Shown here piece by piece: positions 15,620-19,965 of a DNA stretch of 64,000 nt. Positions within the stretch are counted from its first letter, which is position 1, and each line of letters starts with the position of its first letter. Source of the DNA: an uncultured Bacilli bacterium (GTDB lineage: Bacteria > Bacillota_I > Bacilli_A > RF39 > UBA660); assembly GCA_947628235.1 (NCBI GenBank), contig CANQZC010000006.1:8727-72726 (forward strand), in the 5' to 3' direction. Made by a program: the position numbers and the translations under genes. The notes under the pieces are model-generated. The model did not search any database. It was not told the origin of the DNA and was given only the letters and a program-made list of their open reading frames with translations.

Positions 15620-16945
15620 TTAAAAATAATTTTTTAATAACGCATTTAATTCGACGGCGTATTCCATTGGAAGTTCTTCACGGAATCGATCGATAAATCC
15701 CATAATAATTAATTCTTTGGCGCGTTCCTCATTGATTCCGCGACTCATTAAATAAAATAGTTTTTCTTTACTAATTTTTGCTACCGTCGCTTCATGATTC
15801 AAAAAAGAACTTGTATTTTCAACAATATTTTTAGGGATAGTATCACTTTTAGAATCTTCATCCAGAATAATCGTATCGCATTTTACCATGGCTTTAGAAT
15901 GATGAGCATCTTTAGAGATTCTAACCGTCCCACGATATGTAGCCTCTCCCCCATTCGCCGCAATAGATTTACTAATAATCTCACTCGATGTATAAGGCGC
16001 TAAATGAATCATTCTCGCTCCCGCATCTTGAATTTGAGAAGAAGAGGCAACAGCAATAGAAATACATCTTCCATGGGCATGAGGACCATTTAAAATACAT
16101 CCTGGATATTTCATATTCACCTTAGAACCAATATTTCCATCAATCCACTCCATCAATCCATTTTCTTCTACTTTCGCTCTTTTCGTAACTAAGTTATATA
16201 CATCACTAGACCAATTTTGAATAGTTGTATAACGGCATTTGGCATTTTTTCCAACAAAGATTTCTACGACAGCAGCATGTAGAGAATCCGAAGAATAAGT
16301 AGGTGCTGTACATCCTTCCATATAATGAAGTTCTGAACCTTCATCGACAATGATTAAAGTTCTTTCAAACTGTCCCATATTCGCACTATTCAAACGGAAA
16401 TAACTTTGTAAAGGACGATCTAACTTCGTATGAGGAGGAACATAAATAAAGGTTCCACCACTCCAAACTGCCCCATTTAAAGCAGTATATTTATTTTCAT
16501 TCACATTAACTAGATGATTAAAATATTTACGGAAAAGTTCGGGATATTTTTGTAAAGCTGTATCCGTATCACAGAAAAGAACATTCTTCTTTTCTAACTC
16601 TTCAATCATATGATGATAGACAACTTCACTTTCATATTGCGCCCCAATTCCGGCTAAATATTTTTTTTCTGCTTCCGGAAGTCCTAATTTATCAAATGTA
16701 TTTCGAACATCTTCCGGAACATCATCCCAACTTTTTTCTACCTTTTGAGATGCTCTAGACTTATAATAGGTTATCGTATCAAAATCAATTTTTAATTCTG
16801 GCCCAAAAGTAGGTTGAGAAGAATTCATAAACTTTTCGTAAGCTTTCTCACGAAAGTCTAACATCCAATCAGGTTCCCCTTTTAAGCGTGAAATATCTCT
16901 TACTTTTTCTGCATCAAGGCCTTTGATTTCCATAAAATCACCCAT
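15620..16945 (-). CDS. sufB: Fe-S cluster assembly protein SufB
   Basis: 441 aa; EGCTAP, NALLK and overall SufB likeness. Confidence 0.9.
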
Positions 16946-16987: not shown

Positions 16988-17413
16988 TCACTTTTTTTGA
17001 TTTTCTTCCTTTTTTCTTGGCTTTTTAGAAAAAATTTTTTGTTTGGCTTTTTCAAAAGAAGGGACATTCGCCCTTGCCTTTTCTTCCCTGTCTCCATGAT
17101 ACCATTCATAGGCACCTAAGGCTTGCTTCAAAATAACCATTTCACATTCTTTAGGAATACTTGCTTCATATAGTTGATAAACATATAATTGATTTTGATC
17201 TATCGATTGCAGAGTTTCGACTGAAATATTACCATGAACTTTTGGAAGGATTTCAAAAACTTGATAAGTATAAATATCAATGGCTACATTTTCAACAACT
17301 ATAACAGGTCGTGTCATATCTGCTAAAAAAAGAAGGAATATTCCATCTTTATCATATTTAGGTTCTGTGAATTGAACTACTCGCGCAATTTTAAACTGAA
17401 TGATTGGTTTCAT
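16988..17413 (-). CDS. hypothetical protein (between sufU and sufB)
   Basis: 141 aa, lysine-rich tail; no motif recognised. Confidence 0.45.
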   Translation of the reverse strand: MKPIIQFKIARVVQFTEPKYDKDGIFLLFLADMTRPVIVVENVAIDIYTYQVFEILPKVHGNISVETLQSIDQNQLYVYQLYEASIPKECEMVILKQALGAYEWYHGDREEKARANVPSFEKAKQKIFSKKPRKKEENQKK

Positions 17414-17837
17414 AAGATTCTAGTTCTCCTAAAATTTTCTCGATTCCCCACCATGGCAAAAGTGCACATTTTTTTCGATTTGGTTGTTTATAAATATCAT
17501 CATAGACGATGGCTTGTTCTAACACATCTTCTCGGTATTCTTTTTCATCTATCATATTAGAAAAATTCTTTAAAATTTCAATGGCTTGTTCTACTGTTTT
17601 ACCAGTTAATGTTTCCACCATAATAGAGGAAGAACTAGTACATATTGCACAAGCCTCTCCATCAAAATGAATATCTTTTAAAATACCATCTTCTATTTTC
17701 ACTTGTACTTTTACTTCATCGATGCAAGACTCATTGTTCATATCTGCTAAAAGATAACTATCATCTTCTACTAATCCCTTATTTCTTGGATTTTGATAAT
17801 GTTCTAAAATGATTCCTCTTCTAAAGTTTTGATCCAT
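17391..17837 (-). CDS. sufU: SUF system sulfur-transfer scaffold SufU (IscU/NifU-like)
   Basis: HYQNPRNKG...C..D....DG...GEACAICTSS; start at internal ATG 17835-17837 with GGTGA RBS. Confidence 0.85.
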   Translation of the reverse strand: MDQNFRRGIILEHYQNPRNKGLVEDDSYLLADMNNESCIDEVKVQVKIEDGILKDIHFDGEACAICTSSSSIMVETLTGKTVEQAIEILKNFSNMIDEKEYREDVLEQAIVYDDIYKQPNRKKCALLPWWGIEKILGELESYETNHSV

Positions 17838-17980
17838 AGTATCACCACTTTCATTATACGATAATCTTTCCTTTGTTTCAACAGACATTCTTTTTTCGTT
17901 GTCTTTCGTTTGTCAATTTTGAAAGAAAAACTAGAGTAAATTGTATCAAAATTTGATTTTGGAGTCAAATAAAAAGAAGC

Positions 17981-18241
17981 TTATTTAGCTTCTACAATCA
18001 ATTTAATAGCAGTCCTTTCTTCTCCATCAATTAAAATATCCGTGAAGGCAGGAATGCAAACTAAGTTTTTACCAGAGGGAGCAACAAACCCACGCGCTAT
18101 CGCAATTGCTTTAATCGCTTGATTTAATGCTCCTGCTCCAATTGCCTGTATTTCTACTTCTCCTTTTTCACGAAAAACATTTGCCAATGCTCCGGCTACG
18201 GAATTAGGATTTGATTTTGTTCCTACTTTAAGTGTTTCCAT
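17981..18241 (-). CDS. spoVS: stage V sporulation protein S
   Basis: 86 aa; near-identical pattern to SpoVS (LKV..KS.PNSVAGALA...GAGALNQA.KA.AIARGF...IPAF.DI.IDGEERTAIKLIVE). Confidence 0.85.
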   Translation of the reverse strand: METLKVGTKSNPNSVAGALANVFREKGEVEIQAIGAGALNQAIKAIAIARGFVAPSGKNLVCIPAFTDILIDGEERTAIKLIVEAK

Positions 18242-18340
18242 ATATTTTGTTTTCTTCCTTTCTACATTAAACTATATGAAGAAGGATATTTTTTAGAACT
18301 ACTATACAAATAAAAATATAGAGAGAGCAAAAATTAGGTA

Positions 18341-18369
18341 TTGACAAAGGCTGGAGTTCTAAGTATAAT
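18341..18369 (+). promoter_or_regulatory. sigma-A consensus promoter for tRNA-Gly
   Basis: TTGACA (18341-46), 17 nt, TATAAT (18364-69); tRNA starts ~14 nt downstream. Confidence 0.65.
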
Positions 18370-18382
18370 TATAAATGTTGAT

Positions 18383-18456
18383 GCAGGTGTAGTTCAATGG
18401 TAGAACTCCAGCCTTCCAAGCTGATAACGTGGGTCCGATTCCCATCACCTGCTCCA
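18383..18456 (+). tRNA. tRNA-Gly (anticodon UCC), CCA encoded
   Basis: Cloverleaf: acceptor GCAGGTG/CACCTGC, D-arm GTTCAATGGTAGAAC, anticodon loop CTTCCAA, T-arm GTGGGTCCGATTCCCAT, discriminator U, CCA. Confidence 0.9.
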
Positions 18457-18470
18457 TTTTAAATACAAAG

Positions 18471-18502
18471 ACTAGTTCTTATACGAGGACTAGTTTTTTT
18501 AA
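18471..18502 (+). terminator. intrinsic terminator after tRNA-Gly
   Basis: ACTAGT...ACTAGT hairpin followed by T7. Confidence 0.6.
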
Positions 18503-18527
18503 TCCCACGTTATCAGCAATGGAAGTA

Positions 18528-19295
18528 TCAAGAAACCGATTTTGGAAATTTTTGATTCTTTAAATACATATTTTCAAGGATATGATCAAAAAGATTGTAC
18601 CACTTTACCTGAATACAAAATCTATCTTTTTCATATTTATCATTATAATTTAGACACCTATTTTTCGGTTGAACAGTAAGTACACTAAAATGAACTGTAG
18701 AGGAGTATTCCTCTTTTTTACTTAGAATAACATTGATAATATCTTCTTTTGTGATAAAGATAAAATCATCTACTTCCCCGCAAATCAAAGCATCAATAGA
18801 AAAATTAGAATTATTACCACGAAGGATAAATCGATCTATGGCCTTTATTAATAACTGCTCATTATTGATTTCACTATTTATTTTGTCAATCTTGTCCTGA
18901 TTTTGAAGTTTATATTCTTCCGTAGATATTCTTTTTGTTCCTCTACCATTTGTGGTTCCATCGGCATAGTGAAATTTTAAATACTCCATCACACTTTCTC
19001 GCGATATATGATTTGATATTAAGAAACTAACAAATTCTGAAATGGGTTCTACATGAACAGAATTCTTCATTCCTTTTTTAATACTAATCCCTTTCATTTT
19101 ATTATTTATTTTTACTAGAATATCAGACTTCTGTGGTAGATGGTTACGCCAACATTTGATAATAGAATCTTCCTTTTCACCAGGAAAGATAGTTTCAATT
19201 AGTTCTCTACAAATAGGAGTCAATTCCTTAATCTTTTTATTATTTAGTTCTAAAACAAAAGCAAATTCATTATCAAATCCATTGATTTCGCTCAT
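18528..19295 (-). CDS. hypothetical protein (no recognisable domain)
   Basis: 255 aa; convergent with tRNA-Gly; first gene of a 3-gene accessory block. Confidence 0.5.
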   Translation of the reverse strand: MSEINGFDNEFAFVLELNNKKIKELTPICRELIETIFPGEKEDSIIKCWRNHLPQKSDILVKINNKMKGISIKKGMKNSVHVEPISEFVSFLISNHISRESVMEYLKFHYADGTTNGRGTKRISTEEYKLQNQDKIDKINSEINNEQLLIKAIDRFILRGNNSNFSIDALICGEVDDFIFITKEDIINVILSKKEEYSSTVHFSVLTVQPKNRCLNYNDKYEKDRFCIQVKWYNLFDHILENMYLKNQKFPKSVS

Positions 19296-19404: not shown

Positions 19405-19965
19405 TTATTTTCTCGATATTATCATATGAAGGTCTTCCTCAGTTTTTCCTTCTCCATCTACAACAAAGCCAACTTTTTCATAACAGTGAATGGCCTTTTG
19501 ATTTGTCGCATAAACATTTAATTCCATTCCTTTTAAATGACAAATTTCATAAGCATAAGTTAATAATGCTTGAATAGATTCTGTTCCATAATGTTTATCT
19601 TGTTTTTTAGGAGTAATAGAAATTCCTAACTCCCCAATCCCCTCATGGATATGCATAATTTCAATATTTCCAATAAAATCACCTGTAGATTTTTCAATCA
19701 TAGAAAAACAGATAGCTTGCTTTTCTAACTTGGATTGAAGCCATTGAAGTTCTTCTTCATAAGTATAAGTACGAATATCATGACTGATTTGCTTTGCTAC
19801 CTTAGGGTCATTTACCATCGTTAAGTAATCTGGTATTAATCTTTCATTTAATTTGATATATTGAATATTTTGAGATTCAAAAACAATTTCATCTTTCATT
19901 TTTTTCACCAATTCCATTATAAACGAATTCTCATAAAATTGAAAATTTTTACTTTCTAAAAACAA
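19405..19965 (-). CDS. GNAT family N-acetyltransferase (RimJ/RimL-like)
   Basis: 186 aa; acetyl-CoA binding region ...GIGELGISI...HYGTESIQALLTYAYE...; GNAT fold pattern. Confidence 0.75.
   Translation of the reverse strand: MFLESKNFQFYENSFIMELVKKMKDEIVFESQNIQYIKLNERLIPDYLTMVNDPKVAKQISHDIRTYTYEEELQWLQSKLEKQAICFSMIEKSTGDFIGNIEIMHIHEGIGELGISITPKKQDKHYGTESIQALLTYAYEICHLKGMELNVYATNQKAIHCYEKVGFVVDGEGKTEEDLHMIISRK

Follow-up and report, generated by a model that had tools for sequence, protein, structure and literature searches.

A tRNA-Gly(UCC) gene between inverted copies of its own anticodon arm

The window analysed here is a stretch of 64,000 nucleotides (nt) from a contig of an uncultured Bacilli bacterium. 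ARAGORN and Rfam both find one sole tRNA gene in it, a tRNA-Gly(UCC) on the + strand, and this gene is flanked by two short inverted repeats of its own anticodon-arm region, which we call the upstream arm and the downstream arm. The gene, its promoter and terminator, the arms and the tRNA segments that they match are arranged as follows.

18341-18369, + strand: tRNA-Gly promoter, with TTGACA at 18341-18346, a 17-nt spacer and TATAAT at 18364-18369
18347-18361, + strand: upstream arm AAGGCTGGAGTTCTA, the exact reverse complement (15 nt) of tRNA 18401-18415
18383-18456, + strand: tRNA-Gly(UCC), 74 nt, CCA encoded (ARAGORN; Rfam RF00005, 66.6 bits)
18401-18415, + strand: tRNA segment matching the upstream arm, comprising the D-stem 3' strand, the anticodon-stem 5' strand and the first 3 loop bases (standard positions 20-34)
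18413-18433, + strand: tRNA segment matching the downstream arm, comprising the anticodon loop, the anticodon-stem 3' strand, the variable loop and the T-stem 5' strand
18467-18500, unstranded: bidirectional terminator-like hairpin, with an A-run, a stem of 18467-18480 with 18485-18498 and a T7 run at 18494-18500 (sequence and minimum-free-energy fold)
18504-18525, + strand: downstream arm CCCACGTTATCAGC-AA-TGGAAG, exact over 18504-18517 (14 nt) and matching at 21/22 over its full length

The promoter matches the sigma-70 consensus at 12 of 12 positions, and promoters homologous to it precede the same tRNA in L002, L120, L075, L125 and L145 (L numbers denote loci on other contigs). The upstream arm occupies the 17-nt spacer between the -35 and -10 elements, and the downstream arm begins 3 nt past the T7 run of the hairpin, which is common to the tRNA gene and an open reading frame (ORF) convergent on it. 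An inverted-repeat search returned an exact 14-nt repeat, GCTGATAACGTGGG at 18420-18433 against CCCACGTTATCAGC at 18504-18517. In an alignment with one indel, 21 of 22 positions of the full downstream arm at 18504-18525 (CCCACGTTATCAGCAATGGAAG) agree with tRNA 18413-18433 in reverse complement, a match that runs from the whole anticodon loop through the 5' T-stem strand. The loops between arm and source measure 39 nt upstream and 70 nt downstream, and the 64 kb hold no further copy of either arm sequence with up to 2 mismatches. A preliminary description of this DNA had reported two inverted repeats of 15 and 14 nt and assigned them to the right parts of the tRNA. The partner coordinates that it gave, 18399-18413 and 18503-18516, are off by 1-2 nt, and the downstream repeat, real as an exact 14-nt match, is longer than it claimed and reaches 18525.

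Because the upstream arm lies in the promoter spacer, it falls outside the pre-tRNA made from that promoter, and because the downstream arm lies past the terminator, it can pair only in read-through transcripts. As predicted from the sequence, neither arm would be part of a normally initiated and terminated tRNA transcript: the upstream arm would go untranscribed from this promoter, and the downstream arm would be transcribed only on read-through of the hairpin and T7 run.

Chance was ruled out as the source of the arms. The expected number of exact matches is 2.8e-6 for the upstream arm (at least 15 nt) and 1.9e-5 for the downstream arm (at least 14 nt), and 20,000 shuffles of the flanks gave longest matches of 11 nt upstream and 12 nt downstream. 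Comparison loci came from a scan of species-representative genomes, which yielded at least 120 stretches with a tRNA-Gly(UCC) of the same T-loop type. Across 116 other tRNA-Gly(UCC) loci, the longest reverse-complement match between flank and tRNA was 10 nt upstream and 12 nt downstream. Gapped local alignment gave scores of 30 and 32 for the window, at most 27 for 96 comparison loci and at most 20 for a shuffled null. These values bear out the earlier claim that the matches exceed chance and derive from the tRNA. The arms are missing from unrelated tRNA-Gly(UCC) loci, which argues for a single origin followed by maintenance and for no general property of the tRNA.

Inverted arms as a general trait of tRNA genes in these organisms were likewise rejected: among 13 other tRNA rows of the fetched loci (some of them duplicate contigs), only the tRNA-Phe of L178 has one. 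At L178 (~565-674; also L177, 1-89), a tRNA-Phe(GAA) at 599-674 has an inverted, near-palindromic repeat of its positions 2-33 (acceptor 5' strand, D-arm and 5' anticodon stem) lying 6 nt ahead of it.

Two further features concern the body of the tRNA-Gly. Its T-loop at 18434-18440 reads TCCGATT, with C at position 55, where nearly all tRNAs have U55 (pseudouridine). C55 was considered as the mark of a special tRNA and discarded: tRNA-Gly(UCC) with a TCCGATT T-loop occurs in at least 120 stretches of the genome scan, from Clostridia, Bacilli, Proteobacteria, Actinobacteria, Saccharibacteria and others, and its presence in many phyla makes it a widespread variant of this isoacceptor and no peculiarity of the window genome. 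The outermost anticodon-stem pair, 18408/18424, is a C-A mismatch (CCAGC/GCTGA) that is kept in L145 and L182, whose neighbouring stem pair has a compensated change (CTAGC/GCTAA).

Conservation, covariation and decay of the arms

Loci of relatives were fetched from assemblies and metagenomes with the 255-aa ORF that lies next to the downstream arm as the probe. Aligning the locus across these relatives, as the preliminary description had proposed, revealed a recurrent downstream arm and a sporadic upstream one. At least 13 lineages of related uncultured gut Bacilli have the downstream arm, which starts 45-49 nt past the tRNA 3' end in 11 of 13. In the great majority of loci the ORF is followed by the same module: a sense-strand tRNA-Gly fragment that begins at the anticodon loop (CTTCCAAGCTGA...), then an A-run, a hairpin and a T-run, and at the far end the antisense tRNA-Gly(UCC), or merely its 3' end at loci where an element has inserted. 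Every related locus has a counterpart of the window's hairpin and T-run. At the loci where the ORF lies upstream of the tRNA (L145, L158-160 and L164), the arm is still found behind the tRNA terminator. The arm thus belongs to the tRNA unit and not to the ORF, which also rules out a mobile ORF that carries the arm with it.

The tRNA varies between these lineages, and each arm matches its own tRNA. Such variants include GCTGATAACGTGG, GCTAATAACGTGG, GCTGACTACGGGA, GCTGACTGCGTGA, GCTCCTGACGTGG, GCTAAAGACGTCG and GCTGACCACGAGG. Over 13 lineages, arm and local tRNA are identical at 159 of 169 positions, compared with 9.0 of 13 for the tRNAs of other lineages, and 0 of 100,000 permutations did as well. 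When only the nine distinct tRNA variants are counted, identity is 111/117, a value equalled by 1 in 100,000 permutations. In an 11-lineage alignment, 90.4% of the cells of the arm-tRNA helix are paired, and 7 pairs (21 cells) have changed on both sides, which 0 of 500 shuffles reach; sliding the helix partner drops the pairing to 28-43%. The consensus structure returned by RNAalifold is this same arm-tRNA helix.

The limits of the downstream arm differ between lineages. Its T-arm-side end falls at raw tRNA position 50 or 51 in most and at 57-58 in L164 and L125, its loop-side end falls between tRNA positions 29 and 35, and in L163 it continues across the T arm and the acceptor. Pieces of the tRNA 5' half (D-arm and 5' anticodon stem) survive in L148, L155, L156 and L049. 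Limits that differ in this way have the look of a once-longer inverted tRNA copy that was eroded unequally. At loci where an insertion has displaced the tRNA body, the fragment bears new substitutions, as in L161/L167 (CTGACTAtGGaA), L169, L185 (GCaAaATAAC) and L131 (GCTGAgAAC). This decay after separation from the tRNA fits maintenance of the arm by the nearby tRNA copy.

The upstream arm is identical in a contig of the same species (L003). In the closest relative, L002, its counterpart is AAGACAAAAGTTCTA, as against AAGGCTGGAGTTCTA in the window, and is complementary to the tRNA at 11 of 15 positions. The 4 differences between the two lie within 5 adjacent bases, and each raises the complementarity of the window arm to the tRNA; the remaining promoter region is ~85% identical. 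L125 sides with L002 at 2 of the 4 differing sites. L145 carries an inverted fragment across its -35 element and spacer that is in the same register and fits its own tRNA (AAGGCTAGA vs AAGGCTGGA in the window). Other inverted tRNA fragments lie upstream of the -35 element in L158-160 and L164 (17-20 nt) and in the leader in L136. Upstream fragments thus occupy four different places, mostly in untranscribed DNA, and most relatives lack them (L144, L149, L155, L156, L174, L180, L182, L120, L075 and L049). Scattered as they are, and missing in many relatives, they resemble the products of a recurrent mutational process rather than one selected site.

Within 18364-18397, the -10 region is palindromic, TATAATTATA. 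On the - strand this palindrome yields a second promoter-like site, with TTGAAC at 18397-18392 (in the tRNA D-arm), an 18-nt spacer and TATAAT at 18373-18368, and the transcript predicted from it, toward spoVS, would open with the tRNA segment in sense orientation. Three copies of the heptamer TAGAACT (AGTTCTA in complement) fall within 115 nt, at 18294-18300, 18355-18361 and 18401-18407; L002 retains the copy of the spoVS leader as well as that of the promoter spacer.

The behaviour of the downstream arm could also reflect a selected cis-acting RNA element. In a read-through transcript, the 3' extension would pair with the anticodon-loop, variable-loop and T-stem region of the same tRNA, and the resulting 14-21 bp helix would replace the cloverleaf and mark the read-through RNA for cleavage or decay as an RNase III-type substrate. 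Downstream genes, here the convergent nuclease-like ORF, would be insulated in this way from a tRNA promoter of consensus strength. Duplexes of 14-21 bp lie within the substrate size range of RNase III. The 7 doubly changed pairs and the 90% of paired cells, which collapse in the shuffle and slide controls, argue for such a helix, as does its independent prediction by RNAalifold. So do the constant position of the arm directly past the T-run in 11 of 13 lineages, despite differing terminator sequences, and the tie of the arm to the tRNA on either placement of the ORF, downstream or upstream (L145, L158-160). The + strand RNA with its flanks (18376-18530), whose folding the preliminary description had suggested as a check, does form the long-range helix (-54.2 kcal/mol, z = -6.8), at the cost of the anticodon and T arms. 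Some of the mismatches would be G-U on the tRNA-sense strand (L144, L125 and L154).

Covariation is what an RNA helix would show, but DNA repeats that evolve in concert would produce it too, and other features fit an RNA role poorly. A good hairpin with a T7 terminator stands before the arm, the tRNA would already have folded by the time the arm emerges, and the arm is followed by neither a U-tract nor any other conserved signal. The boundaries of the helix differ between lineages, most of which have their mismatches and indels concentrated at the anticodon, A37 and G38. G-U-compatible mismatches number ~4 of 11, no more than transitions alone give, in a set of mismatches too small to tell which strand, if any, pairs as RNA. 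The upstream inverted fragments lie in untranscribed DNA, beyond the reach of an RNA role. No Rfam family matches the flanks: RF00005 (tRNA) was the sole match, and nothing on the flanks reached E < 0.6. A selected helix is the main rival explanation, one that we hold tentatively and think less likely than a mutational origin. The pairing within the precursor tRNA that had been proposed earlier fails for the upstream arm, which sits in an untranscribed spacer, and survives in part for the downstream arm, which is conserved and co-varies, though its pairing needs read-through. In its fullest form, which is doubtful on the sequence evidence, the arm would be a self-targeting element that traps read-through precursors in a non-tRNA fold, triggers their cleavage and insulates the neighbours, a previously undescribed policing of tRNA transcription.

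Mobile DNA and a nuclease-like neighbour at the tRNA gene

All genes neighbouring the tRNA-Gly lie on the - strand. The nearest are listed here.

15620-16945, - strand: sufB
17391-17888, - strand: NifU-type (sufU-like) gene
17981-18241, - strand: spoVS
18528-19295, - strand: 255-aa restriction-endonuclease-like ORF, convergent on tRNA-Gly (PADLOC REase_II model); a neighbour that served as the probe
19405-19965, - strand: GNAT acetyltransferase gene

Other ORFs downstream, to 31 kb, encode a zinc-ribbon membrane protein, an inositol monophosphatase, a queuosine salvage protein, a DHH phosphoesterase, a 2-thiouracil desulfurase, a Ppx/GppA protein, a C39-like peptidase, a two-component system and MgsA. 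The accessory block that had been placed immediately downstream of the tRNA reduces to one gene of variable context, the restriction-endonuclease-like ORF at 18528-19295. Scanned against Pfam, the 16 ORFs that flank the tRNA in the window include no integrase or recombinase, and composition is flat, with a G+C of 0.30-0.34 throughout. The lack of a recombinase, the flat composition and the housekeeping genes rule out an island in the window.

Mobile DNA does occur at this tRNA in relatives. L002/L001/L097 and L120 have the window's suf-spoVS side and, downstream of the same tRNA, large serine recombinase genes. Foreign DNA joins the last 7, 11, 17 or 19 nt of the tRNA in many loci (L124, L131, L129, L183 and others), one species shows both the empty state (L182/L184) and the occupied one (L183), and in L125 a perfect 117-nt direct repeat bounds a 1.6-kb insertion. 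The downstream arm falls outside these junctions, and at loci with an inserted element it stays with the terminator and is carried off from the tRNA body. This tRNA-Gly(UCC) is a busy integration site in uncultured gut Bacilli, and its real junctions are direct repeats of the last 7-19 nt. Insertions at the tRNA, which the preliminary description had suggested looking for, exist in relatives, including the pair within one species, but at its 3' end and not at the arms.

These insertions, and the large serine recombinases just downstream of the same tRNA in L002 and L120, lend some weight to the idea that the arms are remnants or working parts of site-specific recombination, that is, attachment (att)-type half-sites or inversion sites of an integrative element. 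Each arm also has one end at the anticodon loop, the classical crossover site of tRNA-targeting integrases. However, mobile junctions at this gene are direct repeats of the tRNA 3' end, and arms that are the reverse complement of internal tRNA sequence are thus not att scars. Many lineages carry the downstream arm at a site where no element has inserted. By Pfam, no recombinase or set of foreign genes adjoins the window tRNA, which has spoVS and the suf genes on one side and the nuclease-like ORF, the GNAT gene and housekeeping genes on the other. The downstream arm co-varies with each host's tRNA, which is unexpected of a horizontally delivered att scar, and viral contigs gave no match to the arm with its window flanks, which speaks against a phage or plasmid att sequence. 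With the 5'-half copy upstream and the 3'-half copy downstream, the arms stand in an order opposite to that expected of insertion into an inverted tRNA, which we reason rules out that event; inversion between the tRNA and an inverted copy would, by similar reasoning, not yield flanking half-copies. We consider a recombination origin quite improbable, and the earlier proposal of att remnants of an integrative element is not upheld.

Several observations bear on the elements themselves. In L002 (150-2048; also L001), the ORF of a 632-aa large serine recombinase reads without a stop over the terminator, the entire antisense tRNA-Gly and the -10 box and ends in the promoter spacer; its att site could lie inside the gene, with integration changing the C-terminus. 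The 23 nt directly after the tRNA CCA are GTGACGWWTCTGTTCGAACTTTT in L120, L002 and L164. A small ORF of TTQEL type lies downstream of the tRNA in L120, L164, L049 and L075 and is followed in L120 by the large serine recombinase gene. The shared 23 nt and the small ORF may be the conserved end of one element family. L129 holds two AT-rich, near-identical tRNA-Gly-like genes (1848-1921 and 2654-2726) with duplicated upstream regions, one with anticodon CCC and the other with a shortened anticodon loop and no ARAGORN assignment; the pair adjoins a nuclease-like ORF and phage-like small genes.

The 255-aa ORF matches the PADLOC REase_II model (E = 3e-13). Its homologues number more than 500, and no methyltransferase gene adjoins it. 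Sequence and profile searches of Pfam, NCBIfam, PHROGs and the PDB gave no match to its protein, and a poor AlphaFold model with a predicted local distance difference test (pLDDT) score of 61 returned noise and no structural matches in Foldseek. The ORF is nearly always beside tRNA-Gly(UCC) or its 3' remnant, and the genes on its far side vary between genomes. In many lineages its stop codon either borders the tRNA fragment or overlaps with it, and that fragment usually has a lesion at the anticodon, A37 or G38. A homologue with 26-28% identity lies 1.6 kb downstream of the L178 tRNA-Phe, which has its 5' half repeated in inverted form 6 nt ahead of it. These features would suit arms tied to the neighbouring protein, for example to a free-standing nuclease of homing type for the DNA of the tRNA-Gly anticodon arm, with the slightly damaged copy beside it as a disabled target or decoy. 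But L145, L158-160 and L164 have the ORF on the opposite side of the tRNA and the arm still downstream of it, in L135 the ORF adjoins the tRNA without an arm, and L049 has an inverted pseudo-tRNA without the ORF within 8 kb. The ORF also served as the search probe, which inflates its association with the arm, and its nuclease function is putative, suggested by the PADLOC match. We regard such a link as very improbable. In L131 (3774-4047; also L132 and L133), a 102-nt unit is present in 2.7 tandem copies; it consists of the nuclease-like ORF end, the tRNA fragment, the terminator and the last 11 nt of the tRNA, on a contig with no intact tRNA.

Proposed template switching and known systems

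The reading that we favour, at a probability of about 0.5, is that the arms are short inverted duplications of the tRNA anticodon-arm region that were made, and have been kept matched, at the DNA level by template switching. A partial inverted copy of tRNA-Gly would have arisen just behind the terminator in the ancestor of a group of uncultured gut Bacilli, and the downstream arm would be the remainder of that copy. Since arm and tRNA are close inverted repeats, template switching during replication (quasi-palindrome correction or short-tract gene conversion) would recopy one repeat onto the other, again and again. The tRNA is under strong selection, which would remove changes to it and let only arm-toward-tRNA corrections survive; correction would then effectively run from tRNA to arm, and the arm would track the local tRNA. 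The upstream arm would be a lineage-variable event of the same kind, in which a substitution cluster in the unconstrained promoter spacer raised the match from 11/15 to 15/15 and left the -35 and -10 hexamers untouched. We infer both this mechanism and the absence of a selected function.

Template switching is reported to create reverse-complement copies and perfect inverted repeats, to homogenise and extend the arms of imperfect ones, to conserve those already perfect and to give multi-base compensatory changes (PMC8794818; PMC5941160; PMC8604942; PMC13100816; PMC7202029). Reverse-complement copies 39 and 70 nt from their source, as found here, have the geometry of template-switch mutations. 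Consistent with such mutations, the upstream arm shows a clustered, complementarity-raising change against an outgroup, its polarity given by two outgroups, and the downstream arms have stayed matched while evolving, as the permutations (0/100,000) and the 7 doubly changed pairs attest.

Several points weigh against this reading. The neighbouring ORF is merely 45-85% identical across lineages, which implies long retention for a functionless 20-nt sequence, and the correction rate that template switching requires is an assumption for these organisms. The start of the arm is nearly constant (45-49 nt in 11 of 13 lineages) and its T-stem-side end mostly fixed, as selection would also leave them. 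Covariation this strong is standard evidence of a functional RNA helix, and RNAalifold picks that helix. Decay of the arm after its separation from the tRNA is equally expected from the loss of a cis function. The direction of change in the upstream arm rests on two outgroups placed without a resolved tree, and the same register in the distant L145 makes it possible that an old arm eroded in L002 and L125. Finally, all arm-bearing loci were found via the neighbouring ORF, and the distribution of the arm is known within that sample only.

Together our results indicate that the arms have the testable properties of template-switch quasi-palindromes and lack those of att remnants. The observation is robust and the clade-wide covariation striking, and a mutational by-product is the most likely explanation. 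If so, the locus would be an unusually clean natural case of a 20-nt inverted repeat kept matched to an essential gene over long evolution. It would display textbook compensatory covariation without an RNA function, a caution for structure-prediction pipelines that equate covariation with function. If a selected helix is involved instead, the arm would represent a new kind of cis-element, an antisense copy of the tRNA core by which the gene rids itself of read-through transcripts. Under either reading, true att junctions (direct repeats of the last 7-19 nt) can be told apart from inverted arms. A limited literature search, which is not proof of absence, found no tRNA gene with a maintained inverted anticodon-arm copy behind its terminator.

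Three known systems invite comparison. Like the tRNA-gene attachment sites of integrative elements, where partial tRNA 3' ends form the attL/attR direct repeats, the locus has tRNA-derived fragments beside a tRNA, one that relatives do use for integration with 7-19 nt 3'-end repeats; unlike them, the window arms are inverted, internal and integrase-free, occur where no element has inserted and change along with the host tRNA. The predicted pairing of the downstream arm would recall the leader-trailer helices of rRNA and tRNA operons, which are cut by RNase III, in being a long-range helix of ~14-21 bp that joins the 3' extension of a stable-RNA precursor to its body or flank and in showing covariation. 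In leader-trailer helices, however, both strands are removed flanks, whereas here one strand is the anticodon and T-stem region of the mature tRNA and the other lies past an intrinsic terminator. The arms resemble the products of quasi-palindrome correction and template-switch mutation (the Ripley model, E. coli hot spots and the template-switch mutations of Loytynoja and co-workers), which are reverse-complement copies within ~100 nt of their source (PMC8794818, PMC5941160, PMC8604942, PMC7202029). They share with these the clustered changes that perfect a repeat, the homogenised arms and the apparent compensatory changes without selection. They differ in that one arm here is an essential tRNA gene, which makes correction effectively one-way, and in that the repeat has been kept across a clade, where it tracks nine tRNA variants.

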